64,000 nucleotides of DNA, taken from assembly GCA_963783575.1 (NCBI GenBank), contig CAWAOD010000005.1:352001-416000 (forward strand). The letters run 5' to 3'. The stretch's first letter is position 1. Every line of letters begins with the position of its first letter. The notes below the pieces were generated by a model. That model made no database searches. It saw nothing but the letters and a program-made list of their open reading frames with translations, and had not been told where the DNA came from. The stretch comes from an uncultured Spirochaetota bacterium. GTDB lineage: Bacteria; Spirochaetota; Brevinematia; Brevinematales; JAOACQ01. This document shows positions 2,692 to 47,057 of this stretch, one piece after another. The translations under genes and the position numbers were made by a program.

Positions 2692-3523
2692 ATGCCTCAA
2701 ACTTTAACAGAAGCTTTTGATAAAATTGCAGGGAGTTACGACGCAGAAAGGAGAAAATTGATCCCCTGTTTTGATGATTTTTATAAAACCGCTGTTTACA
2801 TTGCCAAGACAGGCAAAAAAGAGCCTGAAATACTTGATATTGGCGCTGGTACTGGTTTATTCGCATATTTTCTCAGGGGAAAATACCCTGCTGCTAATTT
2901 TACATTGATCGATATTTCTGAAAAAATGCTGAATACAGCAAAGGAAAGGTTCAGCGAAGAAAAAAAATCCATTTTATCACCGGTAATTATGTTGATTATA
3001 ATTTTACCGGAAGTTTTGATATAATTATTTCCGCGCTTTCCATACATCACTTGGCGGATGAAGATAAAAAGATGCTTTTTGTCAAATGCTTTAGACTGCT
3101 TAAGCCGGGCGGTATATTTATTAACGCCGATCAGGCGGCAGGAAGCACCGGAGCCCTGGAGAAAATATACCGAGAATACTGGATTTCATTTATAGAAAAC
3201 AGCGGTTTAGAGACTGATAAAATCAAGGCTGCTTACGAAAGAATGAAACTGGACAGGATGGCGGCCGTGGGTTCACTGAAAATCAGCATAAATCTTAAAA
3301 TGTTTAAAAAACAGTATTTTATTGGTGTCATATCCTATTTTATAACAATGAGTTATAAATGCAATTAGAAAAGGTTGGTTATAGTTTTCAAATTTTAAAT
3401 CATTTTTCAGTGAACCCGGCCGTGGAAGACCAGTTAAGCTGGCTGAAAGAAGCAGGTTTTACAGATATTGACTACGTTTATAAATATTTTAATTTCGCGG
3501 TATTTTATGCAAAGAAACAATAA
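2692..3523 (+). pseudogene. Class I SAM methyltransferase (CmoA-like) interrupted by a MITE, plus a frameshift in an A8 run
   Basis: ILDIGAGTG. Adding one A at 2960-2967 restores ...IHFITGNY...FDIIISALSIHHL. Removing 3269-3423 restores ...DRMAAVEDQLSWLKEAGFTDIDYVYKYFNFAVFYAKKQ* (stop 3521-3523). Confidence 0.85.
3269..3417. mobile_element. 149-bp MITE with 14-bp terminal inverted repeats and a 6-bp target duplication
   Basis: GGGTTCACTGAAAA ... TTTTCAGTGAACCC, flanked by GGCCGT at 3263-3268 and 3418-3423. Confidence 0.92.
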
Positions 3524-6508: not shown

Positions 6509-6550
6509 TGAGCATCATGCTCAACAAATTCCGCCCGAGAGGGCGGGTCA

Positions 6551-6692
6551 TTGACGGGAAGAACGCTGCGAAAGAATATAACTTTTGCGTCCCTCCGTAA
6601 CTCACATCCTGTTCGGACAGATCTCCGGGCACGCGCGAGTCCTATCGCGCTCGCAAAAGTGACATTCTTTCTCCGCTATTCACTCCCGTAAA
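6551..6692. repeat. Nested long stem-loop element related to the island spacer family
   Basis: ACGGGA/TCCCGT, AAAGAAT/ATTCTTT and ACTTTTGCG/CGCAAAAGT nested pairings; inner hairpin 6633-6650. Confidence 0.65.
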
Positions 6693-7054: not shown

Positions 7055-7930
7055 ATGAAATTAATTATTTTAACCGTATTAACGTTTCTTATTCAAATTA
7101 ACATTTATGGATTTCAATTCAGGTATATCAACACACCGGATTCAATTTCCTTTACTACCAAACTTTTATTGGAAGAGGGAATAAAACCAAAATATTTAGC
7201 TGAATGGACATCAGCTCTCAAATATTATAACGACATTGTTGATCCTTATTATAAAGAAAAATATATCTGGGAAGAGTCTAAAAAAAATTGGCTAAACTTT
7301 ACAGAAATATCTGAGTATATCAGTAATGAAATTTATTTTTATGATACAAATAATATACATGTTTCCGAAAAAGATTATTCGCTTCATTGCATGACTTCTT
7401 TTATATTATTAATGCGTGATAAAATAAGAGTAAATACTCCATTTTTTTATAAATATAAGGAAAATGAATCCAGTTCTGTTTATTCTGTTATAAAATGGTT
7501 AAAAAATCATAATATTTTTTTATCCGATAAAGAAAAAATGGCGTTTGAAACATTAAATAATTATTTTTCGATAACAAATAATATTGCTAAAGACAACAGT
7601 ATGTTTGACATTGCTTTAAATGAGCTAAATAAACGGTGGAGTAAAGAAGGTTTTCATTTCCCGAAAAATCCTAATTTAAAAGTATTACAGGTTTGGGCTA
7701 TTCAGATCAAAAAATACGTATATTTTTGTGATCATAATGCTATAGTGATAGAAAGAGATAATAAATTGTATTTAATTGAAAAAGAATCATATTATCATCC
7801 CTTTTCAATCTCAATATTTAAGGATTATGATGAATTGATAAAATATTTATATAGATTTTACTTTAATGATCCAAACGATGGAATTATGGTTACAGTAAAC
7901 GGGAAAATTGTTTGGAAGATACTTTATTGA
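7055..7930 (+). CDS. Secreted hypothetical protein, DUF4300-like (possible papain-like Cys/His/Glu fold); very AT-rich
   Basis: Signal peptide; HCMTSF ... DHNAIVIE ... YLIEKESYYHPFSISIFKDYDELIKYL pattern. Confidence 0.5.
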   Translation: MKLIILTVLTFLIQINIYGFQFRYINTPDSISFTTKLLLEEGIKPKYLAEWTSALKYYNDIVDPYYKEKYIWEESKKNWLNFTEISEYISNEIYFYDTNNIHVSEKDYSLHCMTSFILLMRDKIRVNTPFFYKYKENESSSVYSVIKWLKNHNIFLSDKEKMAFETLNNYFSITNNIAKDNSMFDIALNELNKRWSKEGFHFPKNPNLKVLQVWAIQIKKYVYFCDHNAIVIERDNKLYLIEKESYYHPFSISIFKDYDELIKYLYRFYFNDPNDGIMVTVNGKIVWKILY

Positions 7931-8077
7931 ATTGATAGTGGGGTGGCCCTTCGTACAACAGCCTTATAGAAAAAGTCTAAATTAAATAACAGTTTTCCTT
8001 TCCATCCGGCTCCTGAAATTTTTATGTATAGTGTTGAACAGGCCTCAATCAGCCTGACAGAACAAGGGGGCATGCCC

Positions 8078-9427
8078 CATAAGCGCTAACTTGTTAAGGA
8101 AAAATATTCCACAATTTGCATTTTTCTTCTTCTCTTTTTATTAATAAGTCCTCTGGAAATTCTTATCCAATTTATAAAAATACCGGTAAGCGAAAGGCAT
8201 GGAATAATTACTCTCTGCATTTCATGAAGCATAAATGCAAATTCACGCCAACGGCTTACTATCCCTGCCCTGATTAATAATATCATAACCCCAGGGGAAA
8301 AAAGTTGGGCTTGCCAGATAAGTTTTTCGTTTAACAGGGCCACAAACAATTTGCCATACAGCCAAGCCTTGGAACTTTCATCTGTATATTTAGGCAAATG
8401 CCCAAGTTCCGCAAGTTGCTTAAAACGTTTAAATACTAATTCAACCTGCCATCGTAATCTATACCATCGCAGTATTTCTGCCGGCGGAAAACTTGACTCT
8501 TCAAAAGTTGTGAATACAATCACAAACTCCGCATATATTAGTGTCTCCGGTTTTAACTTCTGACTCTTTTTTATAGCATGCTTTTTAATACGTTTGTGAG
8601 CCTTAAGAATAGCTTGTTCAGATTTTCTTATAACACAAACTCTACCGGAAACAGTGGTTTTATCAGGGCATTGTAAATGAACATTCCATGAACATGCTTG
8701 TCCCGATTTCGAAACTTCTGATAATATATCCAGCCAATTAAATGGCTTACCGGATGAATCGCTAACTACAACATGATGAGGGCTGATGCGGACCAATAGA
8801 GAAGCTTTCTGCTCAACGGCAAACTTTATTCCCGGAGCCTGACCATAACCTCGATCACCTATAATATAATCACCCGGTTTCAAATCAAATTGTTTAAACG
8901 ACTCACCCGTCCCTATACCGTTCATTTGAGTTACGCGAAAGTAGTCACACTTGAATGTAGGTAGTCTAAGACTGTAATGAACCTTCCATAAACTTCCCGT
9001 CCTTCCAGGTTCTTTAACTACAGTAGCATCAAGAAGGCGAACTTCAAATCCATCTTTATTTTCCAGTTTCACACCTCGCTCCTCAAATAAACCTTCACAT
9101 AATGACGCCAACCAATCCGAACTCTTTCTTAATCGCTTCAGCAAGGCAACATCAGATAAATCTGCTAAATTGGCTTCACGAGCCCTTACTACTGTTTCTC
9201 TTAGAGAAAACCCGCCAGCCAGATGAATCAAAAGGGTTCTGAGCAAGTCCTCCTCAGATTTGCACTTACGCAATCCCCTTAATGCACCCGTTTCCTTTGC
9301 CTTTTCACGCCAACCTATTGGAAACATTGAAACTAAAATATTCCAATCTTCATTAATCATAGCCGCCTCCATATAAATATTATAGCTATGATTTGTAAAA
9401 ATATCAAGAATCAAGTTAGCGCTTATG
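8078..9427 (-). mobile_element. IS4-family insertion sequence, copy 1
   Basis: 16-bp IRs CATAAGCGCTAACTTG / CAAGTTAGCGCTTATG; near-identical copy starts at 62871. Confidence 0.9.
8086..9360 (-). CDS. IS4-family DDE transposase
   Basis: LLDAT, IGDRGY, YRLRWQVELVFKRFK signature; GGAGG RBS before ATG 9360. Confidence 0.9.
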   Translation of the reverse strand: MINEDWNILVSMFPIGWREKAKETGALRGLRKCKSEEDLLRTLLIHLAGGFSLRETVVRAREANLADLSDVALLKRLRKSSDWLASLCEGLFEERGVKLENKDGFEVRLLDATVVKEPGRTGSLWKVHYSLRLPTFKCDYFRVTQMNGIGTGESFKQFDLKPGDYIIGDRGYGQAPGIKFAVEQKASLLVRISPHHVVVSDSSGKPFNWLDILSEVSKSGQACSWNVHLQCPDKTTVSGRVCVIRKSEQAILKAHKRIKKHAIKKSQKLKPETLIYAEFVIVFTTFEESSFPPAEILRWYRLRWQVELVFKRFKQLAELGHLPKYTDESSKAWLYGKLFVALLNEKLIWQAQLFSPGVMILLIRAGIVSRWREFAFMLHEMQRVIIPCLSLTGIFINWIRISRGLINKKRRRKMQIVEYFSLTS

Positions 9428-9573: not shown

Positions 9574-10323
9574 TTACTCAACCTCTTTATTCAAATTTTG
9601 TATTCTGTAAGATTCTCCGCTCAAGTTATAAATATTTGAATGATGTAAAAGCCTATCCAGAAGAGCGGTTGTCATAATCGGGTCTCCCATCATTTCAGCC
9701 CAATCCTGAAATCCCTTATTCGATGTTATCACAATTGATGTCTTTTCATACAATTCACTTACAAGACTAAAGAATAGATTTGCCTCCTTCTTTTCGATAG
9801 GTGTGTAACCTATCTCATCAATGATTAATAAGTGTGACTTCATCATCCGGTTCAGCCTGAAAGCAGAGCTTCTCTGGATGTCCGCCGTTTTCAGAAACTT
9901 AATGAGAGTAGTCATCCTTTCAAAGCAGACAATATATCCCTTTTCAACTGCCCGGATTCCGATACTAATTGCCAGATGCGTTTTCCCCAGCCCCGGAGAC
10001 CCAAAGAACAACAGGTTATGATGATTATCAATCCAGCAGAAATCCAATAGCTGTGAAACATCCATTTTAGATATTCCATTCACTTTTTCAAAATTAAAAC
10101 CTTCCACATCTTTACGGACTGGGAAGTGTGCTCCTGCCATATTCCGCTGAAAACGTTTTTCCACTCTATAATTCAATTCCAGAGAAAGCAGCCTCTGCAG
10201 AAAACTCAGATAAGACTCTTTTGCCTTTTCAGCCTCACCAATTTCCTCATCAATCCGTTTTATCATACCATTCAACCCGAGAGTTGTAAGCGCAGTTATG
10301 ATTTGTTCTCTTATCTTCAACAT
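9574..10323 (-). CDS. istB: IS21 helper ATPase IstB
   Basis: GSPGLGKTHLA Walker A, LLIIDEIGY Walker B, ALLDRLLHH, GESYR. Confidence 0.93.
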   Translation of the reverse strand: MLKIREQIITALTTLGLNGMIKRIDEEIGEAEKAKESYLSFLQRLLSLELNYRVEKRFQRNMAGAHFPVRKDVEGFNFEKVNGISKMDVSQLLDFCWIDNHHNLLFFGSPGLGKTHLAISIGIRAVEKGYIVCFERMTTLIKFLKTADIQRSSAFRLNRMMKSHLLIIDEIGYTPIEKKEANLFFSLVSELYEKTSIVITSNKGFQDWAEMMGDPIMTTALLDRLLHHSNIYNLSGESYRIQNLNKEVE

Positions 10324-11870
10324 TGCCGGCCCCCGATGGAGTCACAGAGTCTCTGGTATTTCCCGATGTCTGATTTAGCTACTTCAAGATAGTGTTCAGG
10401 ATTCACTGAAGGCCTGACAATCTTTTCAACATTCAAGGGTATTTCTGCCTTTTCTGTTATAAAACAGTTCAGGTAATTATCCCACAAATCCTTCATGGAA
10501 TAACTATCACTCTCCAGGCAGTTTGAGATCGCTTGTGTAAGCTTCCCGGTATCAATTATCTTGTCCCTGAAGTATTTTCTTCCGGAAAGACATTGGTCCC
10601 TTACATAACGATTGAACTTCCTGAAATTACATTCAAGAAAATCCTTCCAGCCGGGAATATCAAAGTACCCGCTTACTTCTTCTTTCAATAACTGCACAGT
10701 CTTTCCCATTTCCCGGATCATTGCCCTGTTGGTTACAATCTGCCCCGGAATCACTGAAAGCCGGTATTCGGCGATTTGCTCTCCCGTTATCCTGTCAAAG
10801 ACAAAAAGCCGACTGCCCGTCTTGTAGATGTCCACCGAACCGTTCCTGTATTTTTCGGGAATATCATACTGGCTTGCATCAACTGCGATCCGGCATTTAT
10901 CGCTTACACTGCGCTCTTCCCTTGCTCCTATCCTGTCTTTACGGAATATCGAATTCCTGACAGATTGGAGATATGGTCTTTCCGTTTCAATCTCTATCAG
11001 CGGTATTTTCATTGTAGCCTGGGATATTCTCCCGTTGGCTTTTCTTTCCAGCCATTTCATCAGGCTTTCTTCCGCTTCCATTAAACTGTTGAACTCCCGG
11101 ACTGAGAAGAAACCGTGCTTGATGAATTTGACTACGTTTTCAATCTTTCCCTTACTTTCCGGGTCAGCAGGTCGGCACACATACATTTTAAGACCCATTT
11201 CCCCGATGAAATACTGAAAGTCTTTCGTGTAGATGATATCGCCTGAGTTCTCACTCGCAACCATCGTGCAGTCCTGATCGATGACAAGTTCATGCGGTAT
11301 CCCGCCCATATATGCGAAACAGTCCAACAGATGATTGATCAGGTCTTCTGTCCGGAATGGCCTCTCCTGGAGGGCCGCATACTTAAAACGACTGGCGGAT
11401 AACACCGCGGCAAATATGTAATACCTTCTGCCATATCTGTCGGTATATTGACCGAAATCAAGCTGGAGCTGCTTTCCATATGGCATGTCAGGCACTTTTG
11501 TGTAATACCGGCGCTTTTCATTCAAGGTAAGCTGCCCGCTTTCAATCAGGTAATGTACGAAATTCCTCATCGTATTTTCATTCGCCGGTAGTTTGCCTTT
11601 TACCTCCAATAAATAGTCATACACAGCAGACATATTCAGCCGGATGTAATCATTCTTTTCATATACTTTCAATATGTCTGTTTTTATTCCTTCGAATTCT
11701 TTTTCACGGAAAGAGAATTCCATCAGGCTTTTCTGGTATTCGGAATCGTTCATAGCCCAATATTTTCGGACTGTCTTAATATCTATTGACAGTTCCCGGG
11801 ATACACCATTTTTACTTTTCCCCAAAAGTTTCAGTTTTTTTATGTCCTGATACATAATATTTTTCACCAT
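10317..11870 (-). CDS. istA: IS21 transposase IstA
   Basis: N-terminal HTH, GKQLQLDFG, LVIDQ, PESKGKIENVVKFIK. Confidence 0.92.
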   Translation of the reverse strand: MVKNIMYQDIKKLKLLGKSKNGVSRELSIDIKTVRKYWAMNDSEYQKSLMEFSFREKEFEGIKTDILKVYEKNDYIRLNMSAVYDYLLEVKGKLPANENTMRNFVHYLIESGQLTLNEKRRYYTKVPDMPYGKQLQLDFGQYTDRYGRRYYIFAAVLSASRFKYAALQERPFRTEDLINHLLDCFAYMGGIPHELVIDQDCTMVASENSGDIIYTKDFQYFIGEMGLKMYVCRPADPESKGKIENVVKFIKHGFFSVREFNSLMEAEESLMKWLERKANGRISQATMKIPLIEIETERPYLQSVRNSIFRKDRIGAREERSVSDKCRIAVDASQYDIPEKYRNGSVDIYKTGSRLFVFDRITGEQIAEYRLSVIPGQIVTNRAMIREMGKTVQLLKEEVSGYFDIPGWKDFLECNFRKFNRYVRDQCLSGRKYFRDKIIDTGKLTQAISNCLESDSYSMKDLWDNYLNCFITEKAEIPLNVEKIVRPSVNPEHYLEVAKSDIGKYQRLCDSIGGRQC

Positions 11871-12075
11871 TCCTGCCTTCCTTTAATGAATTTTCATTAA
11901 AGGTAATCTTCAAGCCTCTCTATGGGAAATCTGTTTGTGACAGGTATGGGAATTTCATTTATTGCTACCCTGGTAAATTAGTTTATCATTCCACCATGAT
12001 ATTTTATCAATTACAATAATCCTGTGCAGTACGCCAGTACTGCTGGCGACACGAGGTCGCACGGCTTTACGGCAA

Positions 12076-12220: not shown

Positions 12221-12467
12221 ACGGCGCTTTAGTGTTTAAAAAGTCCGCCGTCCTTGACGGAATTAAAAAATAGATTATTAATGGTTGGAATCGGTTGAAA
12301 TGAGTGGAAAGATGTTCATCAGATAATTTTTTTTCTGAGATTATGAAATTTTTAATACCCCTAGATTAATACCCCTAGATATTATTGTTATAGTCTGTTA
12401 TACTTGACAACTAGTGATACCAGAAGTAATTTCTCTCATAATTTAAAGACTCTTTTAGGAGGCAGTT

Positions 12468-13037
12468 ATGAGAAGTTTGATTGAGGCAACCTTTATGAGC
12501 ATCGATGGTGTTATTGATGCTCCAAAATTAGTAGAAGAGGCACAACCGTATTGGCTAAAAGACGAGGAAAATGCAAAGTATTCCTACAATCTCCTATTCA
12601 ATGCTGACGCATTACTTCTCGGCCGAAAAACGTATGAAGTTTTCGCAAAAGCATATCCAAATATGGCAAGTTCAACACCCGAAGTTCAGAAAGATTTTGT
12701 GGATCGTATGAATACTATCCCAAAATATGTTGCCTCAACAACCCTTACTCAGACAATATGGAATGCATCTATCATCAAAGACAATATTGCCGAAGAAGTC
12801 TTCAAGCTAAAACAGCAATCAGGCCAAAACATTCTGAAATACGGAACCGGTATACTTGACCATTTGCTGATAGAACATAACTTGATCGATTTTTTATATA
12901 TTTATTTGTATCCTTTCGTCTTTGGGCATGGTATAAGGCTCTTTGAAGACATAAGAGCAAGTAAGCATCTGAAACTTGTTGAAACTACAACTTTCAAGAG
13001 CGGCACTTTGATCCTTAAGTATAGTTGCAAGACATAG
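12468..13037 (+). CDS. Dihydrofolate reductase-like (RibD C-terminal domain) protein
   Basis: MSIDGVID, LLLGRKTYE, PKYVASTTL, PFVFGHGIRLF. Confidence 0.88.
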   Translation: MRSLIEATFMSIDGVIDAPKLVEEAQPYWLKDEENAKYSYNLLFNADALLLGRKTYEVFAKAYPNMASSTPEVQKDFVDRMNTIPKYVASTTLTQTIWNASIIKDNIAEEVFKLKQQSGQNILKYGTGILDHLLIEHNLIDFLYIYLYPFVFGHGIRLFEDIRASKHLKLVETTTFKSGTLILKYSCKT

Positions 13038-13123
13038 CGGCTTCAATAATAAAAATGTTATTACCATTTCAAACGGCATCCATGCCGTTTTTGTACTGAC
13101 TTTTGCCAAGCCCTTTGTCTAAC

Positions 13124-13377
13124 AGCCTTGTAGAAAAAGTCTAATTTATATCCATACAGTTCTAAAAAATTTCATTAGCCGGAAAACACCGATTTTCTAT
13201 ATGTTGAGAAGATACTGCTTAAATGCCCCCGCAGTATGAGCGCCATTTCTGATTGAGCTTCACTCTAATCAAAGGGAATCTTGGTATAACAACCGTTGTT
13301 ATTTCCCTATAATGAGCAATCGACTTTTTCAAATTTCGCGGACAGGAAGTCCGCGACCTAAGCCTGCCCTGAGTTTG
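13124..13377. repeat. Structured spacer element, 5' module; copies at 16426-16679 (close) and 7960-8040 (partial)
   Basis: Starts RGCCTWRTAGAAAAAGTCT in all three; long near-identity between 13124-13377 and 16426-16679. Confidence 0.85.
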
Positions 13378-13476
13378 CAGACTGTGTGAAAACTCGGCTT
13401 TTTGAAGCGTAATTCTATATTTTCCGTTTTGTAACTTCTATAAATACATAATGAAAAATTGTTTTCACACAGCCTG
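13378..13476. mobile_element. 99-bp MITE with IS1182-type ends
   Basis: CAGACTGTGTGAAAAC ... GTTTTCACACAGCCTG flanked by TTG/TTG; interior unrelated to the adjacent IS. Confidence 0.88.
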
Positions 13477-13479
13477 TTG

Positions 13480-13783
13480 ACGAAGGGAGCGCAGCAGGAC
13501 TGCAAAGTGAGGCTCTTTAATTATGAGAAAATCTTTAATAAAACCCGGAATAACAACACCTCATTGAATAGGCACAAGGATGTGCCATGACAAATTTACT
13601 TTGATTACACAGGCAGCAGAACGGTTTGCTCGCTTATAAGCTTGGGAAGTTCTGCCAGCAACACGATGTTGCAGAAATGGCGTTAATGCGTAGGGGTGGT
13701 TCTTTCTTCGCATACCTTCTTCCTTGCCATCAAGAAAGAAGGTGTGAAAGCCAGATTTGGAGCAAGAGCCTGCCCTGAGCTTG
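13480..13783. repeat. Structured spacer element, middle module; part repeated at 19089-19126
   Basis: Hairpins GGCAC-AAGGAT-GTGCC, GCAAC-ACGAT-GTTGC and ACCTTCTTCCTTG..CAAGAAAGAAGGT. Confidence 0.7.
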
Positions 13784-15474
13784 CAGACTGTGTGAAAACT
13801 CAGTAAAATTTTATAGTAAAATCGATTAATTATACAAAGACTCCATTTTTTGATATATTTTTCAAGCTAAAAAAATCTTAGTTTAAAAAATCTATCCGAA
13901 TACGATAAACGATGGTTTATTAGCATCAAACCAGAGTCATAAGTCTCTTTATTCCCAATATATTCAATACTTTTATTAAATTATGAATGAATCCTGCCAA
14001 ACTGGATTCCGTCAGAACGCCATCCTTTCCCTTCATTAAAAAATAACTGTAACCCATATTCCTTTTTATCGATCCAAATGGATGTTCACATATCTCTTTC
14101 CTTTTCTCTATGATCTTTTTCCCGGCTTCAGAACGAATTTTCCTCTTGAAGTTCTCAATTTCTTCTTTTCTAACTGGTACTTTGATACTTCGTCCTTCCA
14201 CGCTTTCAGTACACTTATTTCTTACTTCACATTGGCTGCATAAGCCGCACTTGTACCTGACTATCTCTTTTCCTCCATTGACCTTCTCTACTTTTTTCCC
14301 ATTTCTCACTAATGGGTTTCCCTCCGGACAATAATAAACATTTTGTCCCGGATCATATTTGAATTTATCAACCTGGTATTCTTCAGCAGGTACTCCTTTA
14401 TTATCTTCTTTGCCTCGAATCCTTGCCTTATGTCCGTCATCCGGATTCGGCATATATACGTTATGTCCCTTATCTATACATTCCAGTATCTGCGGTTCGC
14501 TGTAATAACCGGCATCCGATACTTTGACCGTTTCAGTCTCTACCTTAAGCTCGTCCTTTATTTCTTCTACTCGGTCACACATTCCTGCCATCTGTTTGAT
14601 ATCATTGTTTTCATTCGTCACATCAATCACCACAATCAGTTTATTCGCATCATCTACTGCCATCTGCAGATTATATGCAATGTCGGATTTCCCTTTATCA
14701 TTCATAAACCGGCTTTCCGGGTCATTTGAATAATATTTCTCCATTTCAGGATTTCCCTCAAAAATCTTTTTAATAGCCTCAACTTTATCCTTTTTTGTTT
14801 TCATTTTCTTTAAACGTTCCGCTATCTTTCCGGAAAGAAATTCAAATTCATTCTTTTCTTCCTTATCGTTCTTATCCATCTCATTCAAATATTCTTCGAT
14901 CTTTTGATCTATTCTATGTATGATTTCTTCTATGTTTTTCCTATGATAAACATTGTTATTGTGGTTTTGCGCACTGATCTTGGTTCCATCAATTCCAACA
15001 ACGTCAAATGATAAAAGCCCGGCTTTATGACATATCTTCAAAAATTCTCTGAATATCGACTGTATTCCCTTCTTATTATCTTTCCTGAAGTCGGCAATCG
15101 TCTTGAAATCCGGCGCTAGTCGTCCAGTCAGCCACATCAACTCTGTGTTTCTTCGGCACTCTCTCTCTAATTTCCTGCTTGTCCTGATTTTATTCAAATA
15201 TCCGTAAATATAGATTTTTAAAAGTATTTCGGATTTATATGAACTTCTGCCGGTTGATGCTTCTTTTACTTTAAAACCAACTCCTTTCATATTTAGCTTA
15301 TCAACAAAAATATCTATAAACCTTACCGGATCTTCTTCTCCTAACAGATCTTCCAGTGTTTCATTGAACAGAACTATCTGATCCCTTGATTCTCCCTCAA
15401 TATGCTTCATCTTTTACTCCGATTATTTTTGTTCTAATAATTATAGCATATTTACTGTGTTTTCACACAGTCTG
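13784..15474 (-). mobile_element. IS1182-family element, copy 1 (1691 bp)
   Basis: Perfect 16-bp IRs CAGACTGTGTGAAAAC / GTTTTCACACAGTCTG; TTG duplicated at 13781-13783 and 15475-15477. Confidence 0.93.
13926..15410 (-). CDS. IS1182-family transposase
   Basis: SRKLERECRRN..MWL, PDFKTIADFRK, IDGTK, DAGYYS, CP.G/CxxC, EHPFGSIK. Confidence 0.93.
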   Translation of the reverse strand: MKHIEGESRDQIVLFNETLEDLLGEEDPVRFIDIFVDKLNMKGVGFKVKEASTGRSSYKSEILLKIYIYGYLNKIRTSRKLERECRRNTELMWLTGRLAPDFKTIADFRKDNKKGIQSIFREFLKICHKAGLLSFDVVGIDGTKISAQNHNNNVYHRKNIEEIIHRIDQKIEEYLNEMDKNDKEEKNEFEFLSGKIAERLKKMKTKKDKVEAIKKIFEGNPEMEKYYSNDPESRFMNDKGKSDIAYNLQMAVDDANKLIVVIDVTNENNDIKQMAGMCDRVEEIKDELKVETETVKVSDAGYYSEPQILECIDKGHNVYMPNPDDGHKARIRGKEDNKGVPAEEYQVDKFKYDPGQNVYYCPEGNPLVRNGKKVEKVNGGKEIVRYKCGLCSQCEVRNKCTESVEGRSIKVPVRKEEIENFKRKIRSEAGKKIIEKRKEICEHPFGSIKRNMGYSYFLMKGKDGVLTESSLAGFIHNLIKVLNILGIKRLMTLV

Positions 15475-15477
15475 TTG

Positions 15478-15572
15478 ACGAAGGGATGCTCCATGATATT
15501 TTTTCAATTACAATAATCCTGTGAAGTACGCCAGTACTGCTGGCGACACGAGGTCGCACGGCTTTACGGCAA
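15478..15572. repeat. Structured spacer element, 3' module; copies at 11994-12075 and 18374-18470
   Basis: CCATGATATTTT..CAATTACAATAATCCTGTG.AGTACGCCAGTACTGCTGGCGACACGAGGTCGC.CGGCTTT.CGGCAA in three places. Confidence 0.88.
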
Positions 15573-15712: not shown

Positions 15713-15741
15713 TTGACATTACACATTGTATTGTGTATAAT
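15713..15741 (+). promoter_or_regulatory. Consensus sigma70 promoter with overlapping palindromic operator of the TA operon
   Basis: TTGACA-17 bp-TATAAT; TACACA-N6-TGTGTA at 15720-15737. Confidence 0.8.
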
Positions 15742-15762
15742 AATGTATATTTGGAGGTAATT

Positions 15763-15969
15763 ATGGCAACTAATTTAAACATTGATATAGAGTTATTAGA
15801 TGCGGCATATGATATTAGCGGATTGAAAACAAAAAAAGAAACAGTGAACTTAGCTTTAAAAGAATTTATTCAGCGGCATAAACAAAAAGAAATACTAAAA
15901 TTTTTAAACAAGATTGATTATGATGACTCCTATGACTATAAAAATGAAAGAAATAGGATTCAAAAATGA
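15763..15969 (+). CDS. vapB: VapB-type antitoxin (DUF2191/RHH-like); start at ATG 15763
   Basis: MATNLNIDIELL...GLKTKKETVNLALKEFIQR; GGAGG RBS; overlaps toxin start (ATGA). Confidence 0.85.
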   Translation: MATNLNIDIELLDAAYDISGLKTKKETVNLALKEFIQRHKQKEILKFLNKIDYDDSYDYKNERNRIQK

Positions 15970-16397
15970 AGATTTTAGTTGATACATCTGTTTGGTCTGA
16001 AGCATTACGAAGAAAAGATAGTTCTTTAAAATCAGAAGATACTTTCATTTACCAACTTGTTACAAACGATGAAATAGTTATTTTAACTGGAATAATATTA
16101 CAAGAAATATTAACAGGTATAAATAGTAATAAACTTTTTCATAATATTCAAAATACCCTGAGAGATTTTAGTTTTATAGAACCAGGAATTGAAGATTATA
16201 TTTATGCCGCTGAATTGAAAAACAAGTTGATGAAAAAAGGTATAAATGCAGGGTCAATAGATTTTCTTATTGCAAGTATTGCAATAAATAATGAACTATA
16301 TCTTGCAACTTATGATAATGATTTTGATAATATTTCCAAAAATAGCAATTTAAAAGTAATTACTCAAGAAAATTATAAGAATATGAAGAAATTTTAA
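15966..16397 (+). CDS. vapC: VapC PIN-domain toxin
   Basis: ILVDTSVW, ILQEILTG, IDFLIA, TYDNDF: acidic PIN tetrad. Confidence 0.9.
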   Translation: MKILVDTSVWSEALRRKDSSLKSEDTFIYQLVTNDEIVILTGIILQEILTGINSNKLFHNIQNTLRDFSFIEPGIEDYIYAAELKNKLMKKGINAGSIDFLIASIAINNELYLATYDNDFDNISKNSNLKVITQENYKNMKKF

Positions 16398-16679
16398 ATA
16401 AACAGGCGGTAAAACGTGGCACAACGGCCTAGTAGAAAAAGTCTGGTTTACATCCATCCGGTTCTAAAAATTTTATTAGCCGGATAGCAGAAATTTTCTA
16501 TATGTTGAAAAGATACTGCTTAAGTGCCCCCCGCAGTATGAGCGCCATTTCTGACTAATCTTCACTCTGATCAAAGGGAATCTTGGTATAACAACCGTTG
16601 TTATTTCCCTATAATGATCAATCGACCTTTTCGTATTTCGCGGACAGGAAGTCCGCGACCTAAGCCTGCCCTGAGTTTG

Positions 16680-18370
16680 CAGACTGTGTGAAAACTCAGT
16701 AAAATTTTATAGTAAAATCGATTAATTATACAAAAACTCCATTTTTTGATATATTTTTCAAGCTAAAAAAATCTTAGTTTAAAAAATCTATCCGAATACG
16801 ATAAACGATGGTTTATTAGCATCAAACCAGAGTCATAAGTCTCTTTATTCCCAATATATTCAATACTTTTATTAAATTATGAATGAATCCTGCCAAACTG
16901 GATTCCGTCAGAACGCCATCCTTTCCCTTCATTAAAAAATAACTGTAACCCATATTCCTTTTTATCGATCCAAATGGATGTTCACATATCTCTTTCCTTT
17001 TCTCTATGATCTTTTTCCCGGCTTCAGAACGAATTTTCCTCTTGAAGTTCTCAATTTCTTCTTTTCTAACTGGTACTTTGATACTTCGTCCTTCCACGCT
17101 TTCAGTACACTTATTTCTTACTTCACATTGGCTGCATAAGCCGCACTTGTACCTGACTATCTCTTTTCCTCCATTGACCTTCTCTACTTTTTTCCCATTT
17201 CTCACTAATGGGTTTCCCTCCGGACAATAATAAACATTTTGTCCCGGATCATATTTGAATTTATCAACCTGGTATTCTTCAGCAGGTACTCCTTTATTAT
17301 CTTCTTTGCCTCGAATCCTTGCCTTATGTCCGTCATCCGGATTCGGCATATATACGTTATGTCCCTTATCTATACATTCCAGTATCTGCGGTTCGCTGTA
17401 ATAACCGGCATCCGATACTTTGACCGTTTCAGTCTCTACCTTAAGCTCGTCCTTTATTTCTTCTACTCGGTCACACATTCCTGCCATCTGTTTGATATCA
17501 TTGTTTTCATTCGTCACATCAATCACCACAATCAGTTTATTCGCATCATCTACTGCCATCTGCAGATTATATGCAATGTCGGATTTCCCTTTATCATTCA
17601 TAAACCGGCTTTCCGGGTCATTTGAATAATATTTCTCCATTTCAGGATTTCCCTCAAAAATCTTTTTAATAGCCTCAACTTTATCCTTTTTTGTTTTCAT
17701 TTTCTTTAAACGTTCCGCTATCTTTCCGGAAAGAAATTCAAATTCATTCTTTTCTTCCTTATCGTTCTTATCCATCTCATTCAAATATTCTTCGATCTTT
17801 TGATCTATTCTATGTATGATTTCTTCTATGTTTTTCCTATGATAAACATTGTTATTGTGGTTTTGCGCACTGATCTTGGTTCCATCAATTCCAACAACGT
17901 CAAATGATAAAAGCCCGGCTTTATGACATATCTTCAAAAATTCTCTGAATATCGACTGTATTCCCTTCTTATTATCTTTCCTGAAGTCGGCAATCGTCTT
18001 GAAATCCGGCGCTAGTCGTCCAGTCAGCCACATCAACTCTGTGTTTCTTCGGCACTCTCTCTCTAATTTCCTGCTTGTCCTGATTTTATTCAAATATCCG
18101 TAAATATAGATTTTTAAAAGTATTTCGGATTTATATGAACTTCTGCCGGTTGATGCTTCTTTTACTTTAAAACCAACTCCTTTCATATTTAGCTTATCAA
18201 CAAAAATATCTATAAACCTTACCGGATCTTCTTCTCCTAACAGATCTTCCAGTGTTTCATTGAACAGAACTATCTGATCCCTTGATTCTCCCTCAATATG
18301 CTTCATCTTTTACTCCGATTATTTTTGTTCTAATAATTATAGCATATTTACTGTGTTTTCACACAGTCTG
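16680..18370 (-). mobile_element. IS1182-family element, copy 2 (1691 bp)
   Basis: Same IRs and TTG duplication; identical protein; one non-coding difference noticed (13839 G vs 16735 A). Confidence 0.93.
16822..18306 (-). CDS. IS1182-family transposase
   Basis: Identical translation to 13926-15410. Confidence 0.93.
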   Translation of the reverse strand: MKHIEGESRDQIVLFNETLEDLLGEEDPVRFIDIFVDKLNMKGVGFKVKEASTGRSSYKSEILLKIYIYGYLNKIRTSRKLERECRRNTELMWLTGRLAPDFKTIADFRKDNKKGIQSIFREFLKICHKAGLLSFDVVGIDGTKISAQNHNNNVYHRKNIEEIIHRIDQKIEEYLNEMDKNDKEEKNEFEFLSGKIAERLKKMKTKKDKVEAIKKIFEGNPEMEKYYSNDPESRFMNDKGKSDIAYNLQMAVDDANKLIVVIDVTNENNDIKQMAGMCDRVEEIKDELKVETETVKVSDAGYYSEPQILECIDKGHNVYMPNPDDGHKARIRGKEDNKGVPAEEYQVDKFKYDPGQNVYYCPEGNPLVRNGKKVEKVNGGKEIVRYKCGLCSQCEVRNKCTESVEGRSIKVPVRKEEIENFKRKIRSEAGKKIIEKRKEICEHPFGSIKRNMGYSYFLMKGKDGVLTESSLAGFIHNLIKVLNILGIKRLMTLV

Positions 18371-18522
18371 TTGACGAAGGGATGCTCCATGATATTTTTT
18401 CAATTACAATAATCCTGTGCAGTACGCCAGTACTGCTGGCGACACGAGGTCGCTCGGCTTTGCGGCAACTAAGCCTCGATTGTTGTAAAAATGATAGAAG
18501 AATAACACTACAAGGAAATGGT

Positions 18523-19039
18523 ATGATACTTCCCAAAATCCGTGATAAAAGATTTATCACAGTTCGTCGTGGTGGCGTGTTATTGGACGAAGACCATCAT
18601 CTATTGGCGATTTGGACAGCGCAATGTGCTCAGCATGTATTGCACTATTTTGAAGAAGTTCGTCCAAATGATGACCGTCCACTTCGTGCAATTGAATTAA
18701 CTCATGCATGGGGTAAATGGAGAAATTACAGTGAGACAAGCCCTGGATGCCGCAGGTGCATCAAATGCGGCAGCAAGAGAATTGTCCGGTGCAGCAAAAT
18801 ATGCGGCTTTATCCGCTGGCCAGGCTATTGCTGTAGCTCATGTTGCTGCACATGAATTGGGTGCAGCTGCCTACGCAATCAGGGCCGTAATGGCTGCATC
18901 TTCAGAAGATAAAAAGGATTTTGTTAAATATCAGGAATGTCAATGGCAACGAGACAGGCTTCCGGAAAAAATTCGTGATCTTGTTATTGACGATCAACGA
19001 TTGCGAAATGATATATGCTGGTTTGTTTTTAATTGTTAA
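18523..19039 (+). CDS. Imm5-like putative immunity protein, with an apparent extra G at 18710-18713
   Basis: MILPKIRDKRFITVRRGG...HHLLAIW...PNDDRP joins AAKYAALSAGQAIAVAHVAAHELGAAAYA...ECQWQ if one G is removed. Confidence 0.75.
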
Positions 19040-25204: not shown

Positions 25205-26520
25205 TTATTTATTTATATTTTCCAAAAATATACATTCTTTAATTACTTTTAAATTTACCAGCAATAAATTAATAATGAGCATTGAAATCGGAACGTCGGC
25301 AAAAATATAAAACATTCCTATATATTTTACAAGTATTCCCCCGATAAGATAGCCGGCAGGTACTAAAAAAGCGGTAACCATGCCATTCAAGCCCCAAAAC
25401 CTGCCCCTGTATTCATCGGATGTGAATTGCTGCATTAATAAATTGGTAGTAACAAAAAAGCTTGTCAAACCGATACCAAGAATAATTCCCCCAAACATAA
25501 AGATGTAAGTCATATTCCAATTGCTGATATTTGACTGTACCTGCGGAAACAGAGCGAGAGAAACCAGCATTTCACATAAACTGTACGATAACAGGCTCAG
25601 GAAAATAATTTTTCTAATTTTAAATCGATTGACAAACCCCGAGCAATAACCGATCCGATAACAAGCCCTATCCAGCCGCCGCTCAACGCCAGCGCTAATT
25701 GAAGCGGCGCGGACTTTAGAATTACATTGAACAGGTATGGGATATAGACCGAAATTGTCGGTTGTATAATAAATGATGTCAATGCTCCTGTCAGCAGCAG
25801 GTTAAAAACTAAGGCATTGTTTTTCACGTAAACAAAGCCTTCGAATAATTCTTTAAATACTTTTTTTGTTTCTTTTAATAAAGATACACTTTTTGCATTG
25901 AATGCCCTGATAAATGGTAAAGTGATATTATTCTCTAAAACAGCGGAGACAAAATATGATACGGCATTAATCATAAATAAAACAAACACACCGGTCAGGT
26001 TGTATAATGCACCGCTTATTATGAATCCTGTTGCCGCACAAAAAGTAAAAACAAACTGGCTCATAGATATAGCTTCTGCCAGCTGCTCTTTTTCAGCAAT
26101 ATTCGGAAGAATTGCTGTGGATGCAGGATTAAATACCGCTCCGCAGCTTCCCAGGAACATAGCGCTTATATAAAGTATCCATATCCGGAGCGTATGGTTA
26201 TAAAATAATATTGCGACCGTTAATACTACCAGACCCCTGATTATATCCATCCATACCATTATTAATTTTCTGTTGAATCTATCCGCAATAACACCGCCGA
26301 ACATTGAAACAAAAACAATAGACAGGTTATCTATCACTAAAAAAGAGGCCATTTTTAAACCTGATTTTGTTATATCGAGGATATACCAGCTTAATGCAAA
26401 CGCATAAATCTGGTCACCTAACTGTGAAATAACTTTACCTGAAAATAAAAGTTGAAAATTTCGATTTAGAAACACACTCCTTTGTTTTGACATACTTAAA
26501 TTATCAAAACCGTTTCCCAC
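25205..26520 (-). CDS. MFS transporter (MFS_3/DHA3-like), split by a single-base deletion near 25637-25640
   Basis: ISQLGDQ, GGVIADRFNRK, EYRGRFWG; adding one G joins the two ORFs. Confidence 0.8.
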
Positions 26521-26790
26521 CCTTTCCTCCTTTAATAATACTATATCATAAATAAGTCTATTACACAATTCATTCAACCGCAATCCATGTAATTCAAATA
26601 TTTTATAAAATTTAATAATTAAGAATATTGACAAATAATATAAACCTATGTATGCTTGAGATTGTTGGAATTTTAGCTGTATGGGGCTATATCCTTTAAC
26701 TGAAAATAAACATCGATGTTATAAAAGACATTCTTTAATAATCAATAACCGGTAATAAATATAAATTAATTGGTCATTAAGGAAATTTGA

Positions 26791-37099: not shown

Positions 37100-39094
37100 T
37101 TAAAGGCTTTTCATAATATAATCAAGGTAGCTGCTCATAGACAGAGCCCTTGATATCGACATCGCTGAAATATTGGCGAAAGAATCCAGGTACCTTGCCT
37201 GGTCTTTTGATAGTTGGGGATCATTATCCTTTTTTAATATTGCAAGCACGCCAATAACGGAATCATGGGTTTTCATGGGAAGGTAAAACCACTGCGATGA
37301 TGAAAGCGTATCAGTACCCCTTCCGGCAGTCTTCCCGTTTTTATAGACCCACTGGGCTATACCGGATTCATTGCCGCTGAAAGATTCTGTTTTTTCTGTG
37401 CTTCCCATAATCTTTACGATATCTTCCTTATTGGGAAGGAGAATTACCACCTCACATTTGAAGAATTCGGAAATATTTTTGTTGATTGTCCTTAGTATGT
37501 CGCTAAGCTGGTTATAAGTTAGAAGTTCTTTGCTGAAGTTATAGATGGTGAAAAGGAATTTTTCCTGGTCGCGGTAGATATCTATCCTCCACCTGAGACG
37601 GTCGGATAGAATGCTTGTCGATATGCCGACAATGAAAAACACGACAAAGATCGGTAGGTACCGGATATTATTTACAGAAAGCTTAAAATATGGTTCGACA
37701 AAAAAGTAGTCCAGTGAAGCTACCGAAAGAAGCGAAGCCCAGATGCCCTGTTCCCTGCCCAAATATGTACTGACGATTATAACTGGTATTAGCATCAGCA
37801 TTACGACATTTGTAAAACCGAGTTCCTTAAAAAATATAAAGCTAATCCCGGTAAATATCAAAACTATAATTAAAGTAATAATATACCTTACAAAATCGAT
37901 CTTTTTTTTAGCCGCCGGTTTTTTCTGACGTAATTTCTGCTCATCCGAGGAATCTACAAGCATTACCTGTATGGGTTTCGCTTTGCGGATAAGATCGTTA
38001 ACGACTGACCCCCTCATTATATTGTTAAACCTGGATCTCGAAGAAAAACCGATAAGAATTAATGTGATATTGTTTTCAACTGCGAACCTTGCTATTTCAT
38101 CTGCAATTGTATTTCCTATCAAGGTTATTGTTTTTGCTCCAAGATCTTCGGCAAGCTTGAGATTTTTTTCCGCCTGTGCCCTAGCATCTTCACTTACATT
38201 ACCGAACTGGATCGACTCGATATAAACCGTGTACCATTCGGCATTCAGGTCTTCGGCCATCCTGTGCCCTATACGAATAAGCTTCTGCGACGATGGACTG
38301 GAACTTATGGCGATTAGGAGTCTGGAACTTACTGAGACCTGGCTTTGCATAGAGTTTTCACGCATATAATTCAAAAATTCATCGCCGACCTGCCTTGCGG
38401 TATATCTGAGGGAAAGTTCTCTTAATCCCATCAGATTGCTCTTTTTAAAAAACTCAAGCATTGCGGTCCTGGCTTTTTCCGGTATGTAGACCTTGCCGTC
38501 CTTAAGCCTTCTTTCAAGTTCCTCGATCGGAATATCGACAAGTTCTATTTCATCGGCATTATCAAAAGAACTGTCCGGTACGATTTCTTTTACTTTGATT
38601 CCCGTCATCTGTTCGACAATATCGTTTATACTTTCCAGATGCTGAACATTTAATGTAGTAACAACACTGATACCGTCATTTATCAACTCTTCAATATCCT
38701 GCCAGCGTTTGGTGTTCCTCGAACCGGGAATGTTGGTATGCGCCATTTCATCGACAAGGACAAGCGCGGGCTTTCTTTTCATAACTGCGTCAATATCCAT
38801 TTCATCGATTGTTATGCCCTGGTATTCGATTTTTCTGCGCGGGATGATTTCCAGGTCCGCAAGTAATGCTTCGGTCTCGGCCCTTTTATGCGTTTCAACA
38901 ATGCCTATGACCACATCTACGCCGCTAGATTTGAGCTGTCTGGCATTCTGGAGCATCCGGTAAGTTTTACCGACGCCTGCCGAATACCCCAGGTATATTT
39001 TTAAAATACCGCTCCCGTCGCTTTCATCGGCTTCCTGCTGCTGCATTCTCTTCAATATCGTTTCGGGGTCAAGCCGCCTGTGTTCCTGTGCCAT
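37100..39094 (-). CDS. kdpD: KdpD sensor lacking the C-terminal HisKA/HATPase transmitter
   Basis: GYSAGVGKTY, LVDEMAHTN, NVQHLES, USP domain, 4 TM helices, GAF; stop follows the GAF. Confidence 0.85.
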   Translation of the reverse strand: MAQEHRRLDPETILKRMQQQEADESDGSGILKIYLGYSAGVGKTYRMLQNARQLKSSGVDVVIGIVETHKRAETEALLADLEIIPRRKIEYQGITIDEMDIDAVMKRKPALVLVDEMAHTNIPGSRNTKRWQDIEELINDGISVVTTLNVQHLESINDIVEQMTGIKVKEIVPDSSFDNADEIELVDIPIEELERRLKDGKVYIPEKARTAMLEFFKKSNLMGLRELSLRYTARQVGDEFLNYMRENSMQSQVSVSSRLLIAISSSPSSQKLIRIGHRMAEDLNAEWYTVYIESIQFGNVSEDARAQAEKNLKLAEDLGAKTITLIGNTIADEIARFAVENNITLILIGFSSRSRFNNIMRGSVVNDLIRKAKPIQVMLVDSSDEQKLRQKKPAAKKKIDFVRYIITLIIVLIFTGISFIFFKELGFTNVVMLMLIPVIIVSTYLGREQGIWASLLSVASLDYFFVEPYFKLSVNNIRYLPIFVVFFIVGISTSILSDRLRWRIDIYRDQEKFLFTIYNFSKELLTYNQLSDILRTINKNISEFFKCEVVILLPNKEDIVKIMGSTEKTESFSGNESGIAQWVYKNGKTAGRGTDTLSSSQWFYLPMKTHDSVIGVLAILKKDNDPQLSKDQARYLDSFANISAMSISRALSMSSYLDYIMKSL

Positions 39095-39128
39095 TTCTTA
39101 CCTCCGGAAAGCCCGTCAAAATAGCTTT

Positions 39129-39511
39129 TTATATTTTAATATTCAGCTCAAATTCTACAATTGTTTTTATGATATATTGTGCAATTTCTGATATATCTGT
39201 ATTGATATCAAATTCATTTTCCCTAAATTCTATGTTCTCACCAGAGTGCGATGGATAGGTTAGAACTATATAACCTTTCAGAGTTTTATCATCATAGTAA
39301 TTTTTCAATTCGATCTTATCTTTCAAGTTAGCTGCAAATTCTTCAGGCAGTCCTTTCCAGATAGCGTCTATAATCTCATCAGTTTATCCAAAATCTTCTT
39401 AAGATTATCTGAAACTATATTATTTCCCGGTTGATCGGCTCCCCGTATAAGCTGGTGTCTTAGGTTGATTATTAGCTTGATTAATTCATCATATGATTCT
39501 TTCTCAGACAT
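39129..39511 (-). CDS. Hypothetical protein of about 127 aa between kdpC and kdpD, with an apparent 1-bp deletion near 39383-39385
   Basis: MSEKESYDELIK...KKILDK joins TDEIIDAIWKG...LKDKIELK if one A is added. Confidence 0.5.
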
Positions 39512-39583
39512 AAAATATCTTCCACAATAAATATTTAATATATTAACTTTTGGTATAAAGTAACTGTATTTTTATCAAGCAAT

Positions 39584-40144: not shown

Positions 40145-40153
40145 AAATTTCTC

Positions 40154-42205: not shown

Positions 42206-42216
42206 ATTTTACCTCC

Positions 42217-45904: not shown

Positions 45905-46873
45905 ATGCCTCTTAAATTGATTTTTTTCCTAACCATAATATGCGTTAGTAGCTCTTTTGCGAATGATAATTACAACAATTTAATTCTTTATGCCGGAGAA
46001 ACAGAATCTACAAATTACTCTAATGCCTTAAAACTTTATGGCCTGGCAATACAAATTGATCCGGACAATCCGGAAGCTTACATAAGAAGAGGAGTCCTGC
46101 TTTATTCCCATAGCGATTATATATCGTCTTACAGGGATTTTAAAACTGCGGTCAAAATTGAGCCAAACAAGGATAAAAAGCAATCCGAAATTAAGTCAAT
46201 CGACTATCTAACCTGTACAAGGTTCATCGGAAGCAATGCAGAAGAAGAATCTAAAAAAGCGATGGACCTGATAATGAAGGGAGATTCGAAAGAAGCTATT
46301 CTGGTTCTTTTAGACTTAATTATTACCAATACTCAGAATGCCTTTATTTATTATCAACTTGGATATGCCTGGACTGAATTGAAAGATTATTCAAAAGCAT
46401 CCGATTATCTAGAAAAAGGTCGTCTTGTCAACCCGGTATATGAAAATATCCTGCTTGAATTAAAATATGTCTATTCAGAAACAAAGAAACTTGAAAAACT
46501 TGATGAAGTAATTAATGATCTAATGAATTTTTATGGAGAAAATCCAGTTCTATACCAGGATCTAGGCTTTGCATACGCGGAGTCGGGTAATTTCGGCAGA
46601 GCAGCTCAGGTATTTGAAACCAGTATTAATAAATTTTCAGACTATTATATAACTTATTTTATCCTTGGGCAGATATATTATCAGACCGGAAAATTCGAAA
46701 GTGCAAAAATATATTTACGAAAATTTTATTACAAAGTCAATCAAAGTGATTTTGATAAGTATAAAATCGATGAAGATATAAGTGCTTACAAGCTTAGGGC
46801 AAAAATCATGCTTGACGATATGAGTAACTATTCTGCCAGCTCAAGCAGCCAAGGGAGCAGGGATGCTCCATGA
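45905..46873 (+). CDS. Secreted TPR-repeat protein
   Basis: Signal peptide; TPR motifs (AIQIDPDNPEAYIRRG, YYQLGYAW, YQDLGFAY). Confidence 0.8.
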   Translation: MPLKLIFFLTIICVSSSFANDNYNNLILYAGETESTNYSNALKLYGLAIQIDPDNPEAYIRRGVLLYSHSDYISSYRDFKTAVKIEPNKDKKQSEIKSIDYLTCTRFIGSNAEEESKKAMDLIMKGDSKEAILVLLDLIITNTQNAFIYYQLGYAWTELKDYSKASDYLEKGRLVNPVYENILLELKYVYSETKKLEKLDEVINDLMNFYGENPVLYQDLGFAYAESGNFGRAAQVFETSINKFSDYYITYFILGQIYYQTGKFESAKIYLRKFYYKVNQSDFDKYKIDEDISAYKLRAKIMLDDMSNYSASSSSQGSRDAP

Positions 46874-47057
46874 TAGCCTTTATTATTTAATGATATTGTC
46901 GAACGTAAGTTCGACAGCGCAACGATTGCGCATAGTTCGACAGCGGCACGAGGTCACACTAACTCAAGCAGCCAAGGGGACACGGATGTTCCATGATATC
47001 TTCTATTAATTTAATAATATTGCTGAACGCAAGTTCGGCAGCGACACGAGGTCGCAC
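46840..47057 (+). repeat. Tandem pair of structured repeat units related to the island spacer 3' module
   Basis: Units start CTCAAGCAGCCAAGGG at 46840 and 46963; share GGATG(C/T)TCCATGATA and GCG(A/G)CACGAGGTC(G/A)CAC with 15478-15559. Confidence 0.85.

Follow-up and report, generated by a model that had tools for sequence, protein, structure and literature searches.

The window analysed here, that is, the whole stretch of 64,000 nucleotides at positions 352001-416000 of contig C5, belongs to a Spirochaetota genome (G000) of 4.9 Mb and 90% completeness, in which there are four matches to FlaA, a spirochaete marker. Part of it consists of accessory genes interspersed with palindromic repeats, which we designate E (with its compact relatives T3 and T4) and U and list with their neighbours in table 1. 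The copy of E lies in a doublet with a T4-type module, within a wider bracket formed with T3, and is cluttered by passengers, namely a mini-repeat of about 25 nt, an IS21 copy and IS remnants. The window also carries a tRNA gene recognized by Rfam (45667-45738, minus strand) and several apparently frameshifted genes (a methyltransferase, an Imm5-like, an MFS and an amidase gene and the kdp region, at 2692-3368, 18382-19039, 25205-26634, 37100-43919 and 55053-56493), which may reflect either assembly errors or decay.

Table 1. Repeat modules, insertion sequences and accessory genes mapped in the window
Feature	Position (nt)	Strand	Remarks
T3, compact GGA-hairpin element	6520..6690	-	left, outward-facing member of the window bracket
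T3 basal stem arms; TAGGAC hairpin	6568-6582 + 6650-6663; 6633-6650	-	
DUF4300 gene	7055..7930	+	enclosed between T3(-) and E(+)
IS21 copy	9574-11870		directly before the 3' U part
3' U part	11994..12075	+	middle hairpin, ACGAG hairpin 12046-12060, end motif 12062-12075
Lone AAGGAC hairpin, then T run	12244..12261	-	terminator-like
RibD_C (DHFR-like) accessory gene	12468..13037	+	between repeat modules
T4-type module	13071..13115	-	ATGGAT hairpin 13071-13090; 140-nt divergent doublet with E
Element E	13227..13755	+	left arm 13227-13251 pairs with 13672-13696; inner stem 13294-13304 with 13547-13560
E hairpin 1	13336..13356	+	AGGAA loop
Unrelated mini-repeat (~25 nt) within E	13361..13487	+	split by ~100-nt IS1182 miniature (from 13378)
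E hairpin 2	13491..13503	+	AGGAC loop
U unit inside E	13571..13672	+	AAGGAT hairpin 13571-13586, spacer, ACGAT hairpin 13658-13672
E tail	13700..13746	+	pyrimidine tract, then hairpin with pyrimidine arm, loop and purine arm; class IV pyrimidine triplex predicted
Mini-repeat and IS1182 copy	13767..15485	-	transposase 13926-15410; in GGA loop of the U after E
Remainder of IS1182-interrupted U	15486..15572	+	ACGAG hairpin (15543), end motif
Small ORF and PIN-domain gene	15733..16397	+	VapBC-like pair; putative antitoxin, from its position
Second E copy, 5' part	16529..16660	+	hairpin 1 (16638-16658); cut by mini-repeat and IS1182
Mini-repeat and second IS1182 copy	16663..18381	-	ORF 16822-18306
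U remainder	18382..18468	+	ACGAG hairpin (18439), end motif; then split Imm5-like gene to 19039
Two tandem U units, period 123	46842..47056	+	AGGGAT/ACGGAT hairpin, AT-rich spacer, GNNA hairpin, ACGAT/ACGAG hairpin

A sequence-only reading of this DNA had described an alphabet of hairpins in which GGA or ACGA loops persist while the stems differ, and all 11 hairpin strings do lie at the places and on the strands it gave, including the ACGAG hairpin at 12046, 15543, 18439 and 47041; the AGGAA hairpin is also present, even if the string as written starts at 13337 and 16639, the positions 13336 and 16638 adding one T-A pair. Counting hairpins with GC-rich stems of at least five pairs across the 4.9 Mb of the genome, we found 62 with a CANGGANG loop (4-12 in three block shuffles), 58 with a CAGGANG loop (4-7) and 45 with a CACGANG loop (5-9), an excess of about 5-15-fold for the three classes, while five control loops counted in the same way gave 1-16 hairpins each. 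Such hairpins lie outside open reading frames of at least 150 aa, which occupy 82% of the genome, in 143 of 165 cases. For the first hairpin of E, located by sequence anchors, 33 copies of the element were examined; four without anchor or loop, six duplicates and two with a loop insertion were dropped, and one mis-registered copy was kept. In the 21 distinct copies that remained, where a single position shows as many as four kinds of pair, 136 of 147 cells are paired, against 90 ± 6 when the arms are permuted (0 of 5000 permutations), a significance that is overstated by the kinship among E copies. Loop enrichment and stem covariation thus support the earlier proposal of selection on structure plus loop. 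What has to be abandoned is the notion of a free alphabet, since the hairpins are fixed modules of larger repeats. Their presence on both strands, raised in that reading against a single-transcript model, merely follows from the two orientations of the elements, within each of which the GGA loops keep to one strand. A further loop class, ACGCG, was set apart from the E and U repeats, as it is accounted for by a CRISPR array (G000 C3:146491-147829), the 21 repeats of which carry a CACGCCC/GGGCGTG hairpin.

Element E measures about 330 nt and has 36 left ends in G000. Its layout comprises an outer and an inner stem, two GGA hairpins, a CCGA...GAGG motif around hairpin 2 and a 3' tail; the loops of hairpin 1 are AGGAN, ANGGAN, TGGAC or ACGAC, and only rarely AYGGAY. 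For one intact copy, the folding z score is -9.2 when the GGA strand is taken and -5.3 for its complement. Applied to our alignment A1, RNAalifold recovered the outer stem and part of hairpin 1 only, because the sub-types of E align poorly; the CCGA...GAGG motif is visible in the same alignment and appears as internal loops in the fold, tandem GA pairs being non-canonical. Unit U, of about 110 nt and with module counts of 64 and 58 in G000, consists of a GGA hairpin separated by an AT-rich spacer from a GNNA hairpin, with an ACGA hairpin last, and is found solitary, in tandem or inserted into E, the latter two settings both being present in the window. The ACGA class of the sequence-only reading corresponds to the final hairpin of U, in which ACGAT fills 25 of 33 copies and none in that count has GGA. 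Because one E hairpin 1 (a copy on contig C14) has ACGAC in place of GGA, the loop shared by these modules is A(N)GAN rather than GGA. Element modules occur at 129 sites in G000, in both orientations, and the congener G001 has 17 element matches. A metagenome scan with an E-specific pattern gave 0 matches, and blastn against plasmids gave none. In two E copies (G000 C3:327286 and C4:92218, both on the minus strand; loci L010 and L012), a miniature of about 130 nt with terminal inverted repeats lies inside the GGA loop of hairpin 1, flanked by an apparent target duplication of 8-10 nt.

In the 3' tail of E, a pyrimidine tract upstream of a hairpin mirrors the 5' arm of that hairpin and hence runs parallel to its purine arm. 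This holds for the window copy, whose stem has one mismatch. For 22 distinct tails, located with the basal stem as anchor and falling into 12 purine-tract classes (10 tails are from G000 and 12 from G001), the match of each tail to its own mirror is 8.88 against 7.08 ± 0.31 after permutation (0 of 5000), while a direct-repeat reading also beats most permutations (7.62 versus 7.04; 74 of 5000). In 122 foreign matches of the tail, the single free position is T/T/A in 119, C/C/G in 2 and discordant in 1. At the level of sequence, the three tracts change together, as a pyrimidine triplex requires, and both the layout and the covariation agree with class IV intrastrand triplexes, in which the tracts follow the order third strand, pyrimidine, purine and the third strand is parallel to the purine tract; the 3' end is therefore predicted to fold as a triple helix. 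Pyrimidine triplexes are possible in RNA too (PMC4666352). Class IV in that paper has the same tract order, and the intrastrand motifs treated there, TMECO/BoxC among them, are likewise intergenic, multicopy and tied to variable loci, but the motif studied is G-rich and different from the E tail.

How are these repeats related to known families? The full match to an Rfam family that the sequence-only reading had weighed against its own proposal was not found: scans of the window, of G000 and of foreign loci gave no relevant family at cut-off, and what emerged were sub-threshold matches to RF01731, the TwoAYGGAY motif defined in PMC2864571. Three E cores of G000 scored 37.2, 35.3 and 27.5 bits over all 168 positions (cut-off 43), the best score in genome G022 was 27.1 bits, and there was no match in G232, G168, G045 or G059, nor within the window. 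E resembles TwoAYGGAY in having two sequential GGA-loop hairpins on a common basal stem and extra stems; its CCGA...GAGG motif may correspond to the tandem GAs remarked upon for TwoAYGGAY in PMC4333381. It resembles extended forms of the motif in its many copies per genome, its enriched divergent doublets and its adjacent tandem units; according to a recent preprint (bioRxiv 10.64898/2026.09.22.753630), these extended forms reach 202 copies, include 5' GMTBT repeats, form divergent doublets with a median spacing of 249 bp, adjoin REP arrays and are largely confined to Pseudomonadota, the choice between mobility and CsrA sponging being left open. The two loops of E do not both carry AYGGAY, those of E and U being A(N)GGAN and ACGAN instead. 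Since neither the RF01731 score nor the loops reach the definition, we file E as a divergent relative of TwoAYGGAY. It differs from the forms of the preprint also in its Spirochaetota host, in the spacing of its pairs, which lie 0.1-13 kb apart and enclose genes, and in its mirror-type tail, in place of which a 3' pseudoknot is predicted there; a GGA-less core with the same tail as E, described below, is a further departure from TwoAYGGAY. The words 'triplex', 'triple helix' and 'cargo' are absent from the main text of the preprint, the figures of which may include Spirochaetota or the tail. For TwoAYGGAY-type repeats, no description of cargo-filled brackets, triplex tail or GGA-less core was found in the literature searched, outside subscription journals and preprint supplements. 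Hence cargo-enclosing pairs, a three-way covarying tail and a GGA-less core appear to be new for such repeats, whereas their multicopy and divergent-doublet form was already known. We considered and rejected the guanidine-II riboswitch (mini-ykkC, with ACGR loops), which gave no Rfam match; that riboswitch has a pair of ACGR tetraloops ahead of guanidine genes, while the ACGA loops here are single C-ACGAN-G pentaloops beside unrelated genes.

The tail pattern extends beyond spirochaetes, of which 9 of 301 Spirochaetota genomes carry it: at least 120 loci were obtained, in Beta- and Gammaproteobacteria, Bacteroidota, Ignavibacteria, Clostridia and others, and it is also present on one viral contig. 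Among the matches listed, a GGA double hairpin lies upstream of the tail in Methylococcales, Lysobacter, other Gammaproteobacteria and spirochaetes; in Betaproteobacteria, Bacteroidota and Pasteurellaceae its place is taken by a GGA-less core, which has tandem GAs along with a small hairpin. The two forms are tied together by G022, where one and the same core occurs both with a GGA hairpin inserted and without it; this hairpin is an optional insert in a core common to the GGA-less forms. The small hairpin of the GGA-less core has a c-GNA-g cap in 34 of 53 matches and a c-GNRA-g tetraloop in none, and the middle loops of U are GNYA in 21 cases, GNRA in 4 and other in 7. Mini-hairpins of the GCGNAGC/GCGNNAGC kind have exceptional stability as DNA and far lower stability as RNA, while functional RNAs use GNRA loops (PMC13037366). 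These GNA and GNYA loops indirectly favour folding as single-stranded DNA, and we infer that the repeats adopt this state, even if the G-U pairs and putative tandem GA pairs of E would fit RNA equally. On the viral contig (L042:2990-3050), the tail has phage-like genes on one side and, on the other, an accessory gene near aroC, apparently at the edge of a prophage. A copy of the element resembling those of Methylobacter (L097) lies in a 1.0-Mb genome labelled Paceibacterota, to which its contig may have been wrongly binned.

Within G000 the elements cluster, and their pairs tend to point outward. Neighbouring E, T3 and T4 elements form 27 pairs within 12 kb, against 8.8 expected, of which 16 are divergent (0 of 10000 strand shuffles), 6 tandem and 5 convergent, four of the last (101-274 nt apart) being probably the two arms of one T3. 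Elsewhere in G000, divergent pairs enclose 0.7-13 kb of accessory DNA, with mostly housekeeping genes in the flanks. Matches to PADLOC models were obtained for 22 of the 51 non-IS proteins enclosed in 15 brackets, compared with 3 of 49 flanking proteins, both sets being hand-chosen and the three flanking matches generic cross-matches. Eleven of the 15 brackets have such a match, to type I, II and IIG restriction-modification, two DSR1-like systems and PDC-S14, S23 and S31; the remaining four, the window bracket included, have no PADLOC match. The GC content is 0.28-0.34 in 12 of 16 brackets, versus 0.374 for the genome as a whole rather than for a matched control. PADLOC models also matched 6 of the 21 proteins that adjoin elements in G001, these six coming from two brackets. 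Doublets without cargo occur in other hosts: 38 of 56 tails in G047 form them at a spacing of 467-502 nt, as do 10 of 13 tails in Variovorax G061 (about 480 nt), whereas the exact pattern gave close doublets for 0 of 35 tails in Lysobacter and for 0 of 13 and 0 of 11 in two Methylobacter genomes. At 99.0-99.2 kb (approximately) of contig C18, G000 has an apparent empty site without element, while in G001 outward elements lie beside both orthologues, on two unjoined contigs. The genes enclosed at L012:3562-6332, L027:3258-5502, L010:3486-6346 and L020:3930-8203, mostly without Pfam or PADLOC match where scanned, lie in brackets like those that hold defence systems elsewhere and are candidate defence genes.

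Given that CsrA sites have the consensus CANGGANG/CAGGANG, which the loops of E and U fit, these repeats could be transcribed RNAs that mainly bind CsrA, acting as multicopy sponges or cis sites. The likeness to CsrA sites noticed in the sequence-only reading is real, and the gene it would call for is present: csrA of G000 adjoins a FliW-like ORF, behind a flagellar gene (neighbours named from sequence, outside any family scan). FliW is a protein antagonist of CsrA, and its presence counts against the sponge reading. The likeness does not extend to the ACGA class, which lacks GGA and fills the third hairpin of U, nor does it keep to genomes with the regulator, since G232 (95% complete) has both GGA (AGGAT) and ACGA (ACGAT) hairpins with no match to csrA or fliW. 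In a comparison of 50 of at least 120 loci, one per genome and one of them unclassifiable, csrA was found in 13 of 16 hosts of the GGA form and in 6 of 33 GGA-less hosts (for one of the latter, L128, lack of GGA was the sole ground for the class). The GGA-form hosts without a csrA match, three in number, are assemblies of 1.0-2.8 Mb, and the contrast rests on about three lineages. Counts of GGA hairpins over 56 genomes were discarded as a test for csrA, for their pattern reads as common codons and is also high in GC-rich genomes devoid of csrA. The strand-polar fold of E would suit a transcript, and CsrA sponging has been proposed for TwoAYGGAY (PMC4333381; bioRxiv 10.64898/2026.09.22.753630); yet there is no promoter excess near E (10 versus 6 ± 2.6), and the GGA hairpin is optional within the single genome of G022. 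CsrB/RsmZ-type sponge RNAs share GGA in hairpin loops and variable stems with the repeats described here, which differ in that a unit has two GGA loops, copies are dispersed by the dozen and GGA-less variants exist. Overall, binding of CsrA is plausible, but we consider it unlikely, though well within reach, that this is their main role.

If the repeats are mobile, what moves them? An all-against-all comparison of ORFs within 4 kb of the tails gave no shared protein family but IS families and element-derived frames, and no target duplication or exact boundary was established for E. The sequence-only reading had also considered hairpins of single-stranded DNA recognized by an HUH-type enzyme; the DNA part of this idea gains support from the GNA and GNYA loops, whereas the enzyme part does not, because Y1 transposases do not track the element. 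REP and REPIN sequences mobilized by RAYT, a Y1 HUH transposase (PMC3337134), and the repeat families of P. fluorescens (PMC2718517) are non-coding and palindromic like ours, with inverted doublets, tandem arrays and IS targets, and in SBW25 REP arrays adjoin TwoAYGGAY (bioRxiv 10.64898/2026.09.22.753630); from the numbers alone, the R200 family of 320 bp and 47 copies would be the SBW25 TwoAYGGAY set (48 matches). The doublets and tandem units of G000 recall REPINs, and both of its Y1 genes lie inside brackets. However, E is far larger and multi-stem, with no linked intact RAYT: the two Y1 genes, both of them broken, are flanked by a different palindrome of their own, the tail occurs in 0 of 44 Y1 loci, and element-bearing G041, G047, G059, G063, G065, G067 and G001 (57% complete) have no Y1 match, so that mobilization by RAYT seems very improbable. 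Even less credible is the view of U units as attC-like sites of an integron-type cassette array. The alternation of U modules with single accessory genes in the window (RibD_C, VapBC-like, Imm5-like) would suit it, as would the targeting of E by an IS110 element, but the modules are scattered over the genome in both orientations, they have a multi-hairpin fold instead of one imperfect stem, and no integron integrase (TIGR02249) scores above cut-off in G000. It is also doubtful, to a lesser degree, that a divergent pair represents both ends of a cargo-carrying island that moves defence genes between sites and genomes. The wealth of defence genes in brackets of 0.7-13 kb invites this thought, and so does a methyltransferase cluster, 91% identical over 2364 nt, which lies at different loci in G000 and G001 but in both inside a bracket, with E(+) or its remnant on the same side. 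This is the one shared cargo, with just part of the bracket in common, and some genes without elements nearby are likewise 87-92% identical between the two genomes. Moreover, the ends of a pair are often of different sub-types and diverged, no whole bracket is duplicated in G000, and neither an enzyme nor a plasmid match was obtained. The simplest reading would be that the doublet moves and its centre then gathers foreign genes.

We thus favour, with about even confidence, the interpretation that this TwoAYGGAY-related repeat likely spreads as a non-autonomous mobile element recognized as single-stranded DNA, its back-to-back pairs likely serving as landing pads for defence and other accessory genes. 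Mobility is suggested by the patchy presence of E and the one apparent empty site. The A(N)GAN loops would likely be a protein handle, the predicted triple helix would close the 3' end, and cargo would enter the centre of the doublet either through a mobilizer acting in trans or when copies recombine with one another; any binding of CsrA would concern read-through transcripts and be of secondary importance. A wider claim, in which TwoAYGGAY is the GGA-bearing sub-form of a pan-bacterial mobile element of single-stranded DNA, with a covarying triple-helix end and outward pairs that capture and move anti-phage systems through a putative enzyme, strikes us as a long shot, about as doubtful as the cargo-carrying island; if true, it would reveal a new route to defence islands and a natural role for pyrimidine triplexes in bacteria. 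TwoAYGGAY has had no assigned function since 2010, and G000 makes the choice between mobility and CsrA sponging testable: GGA loops are optional and swappable with ACGA, the GGA-less core has loops of DNA type, and the tail predicts a triplex open to compensatory mutants. If defence genes are indeed gathered or carried by the pairs, this orphan motif would mark defence hotspots, and the enclosed proteins that match no defence model, about half of the total, would be candidates.

The repeats are themselves targets of insertion sequences. The left end of E is the exact insertion site of an IS110-family element (L006:8900-10660; G000 C5:68900-70660), which is therefore a parasite of the repeat, not its engine; related copies occur at L024, L027 and the G001 loci L044, L049 and L054. 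With short subterminal inverted repeats and a long non-coding stretch beside the transposase, it is possibly a bridge-RNA element that targets the repeat. The two broken Y1/RAYT-like genes (L002:1429-1991 and L003:1426-1782) have their own palindromic repeat, and an IS4-type transposase is inserted in this Y1-associated palindrome both in L003 and in the window (8055-8095). The usual landing site of IS1182 is the mini-repeat of about 25 nt, the exact motif of which precedes 11 of 39 IS left ends, most of the others having, by eye, a variant or the other arm. Genome-wide, these 39 left ends reveal a three-level nest, with IS1182 in or beside the mini-repeat and the mini-repeat in or beside GGA hairpins. 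A second IS1182-type element splits the loop of the tail hairpin in four E copies (G000 C4:37649, C4:95646, C5:70657 and C6:99830).
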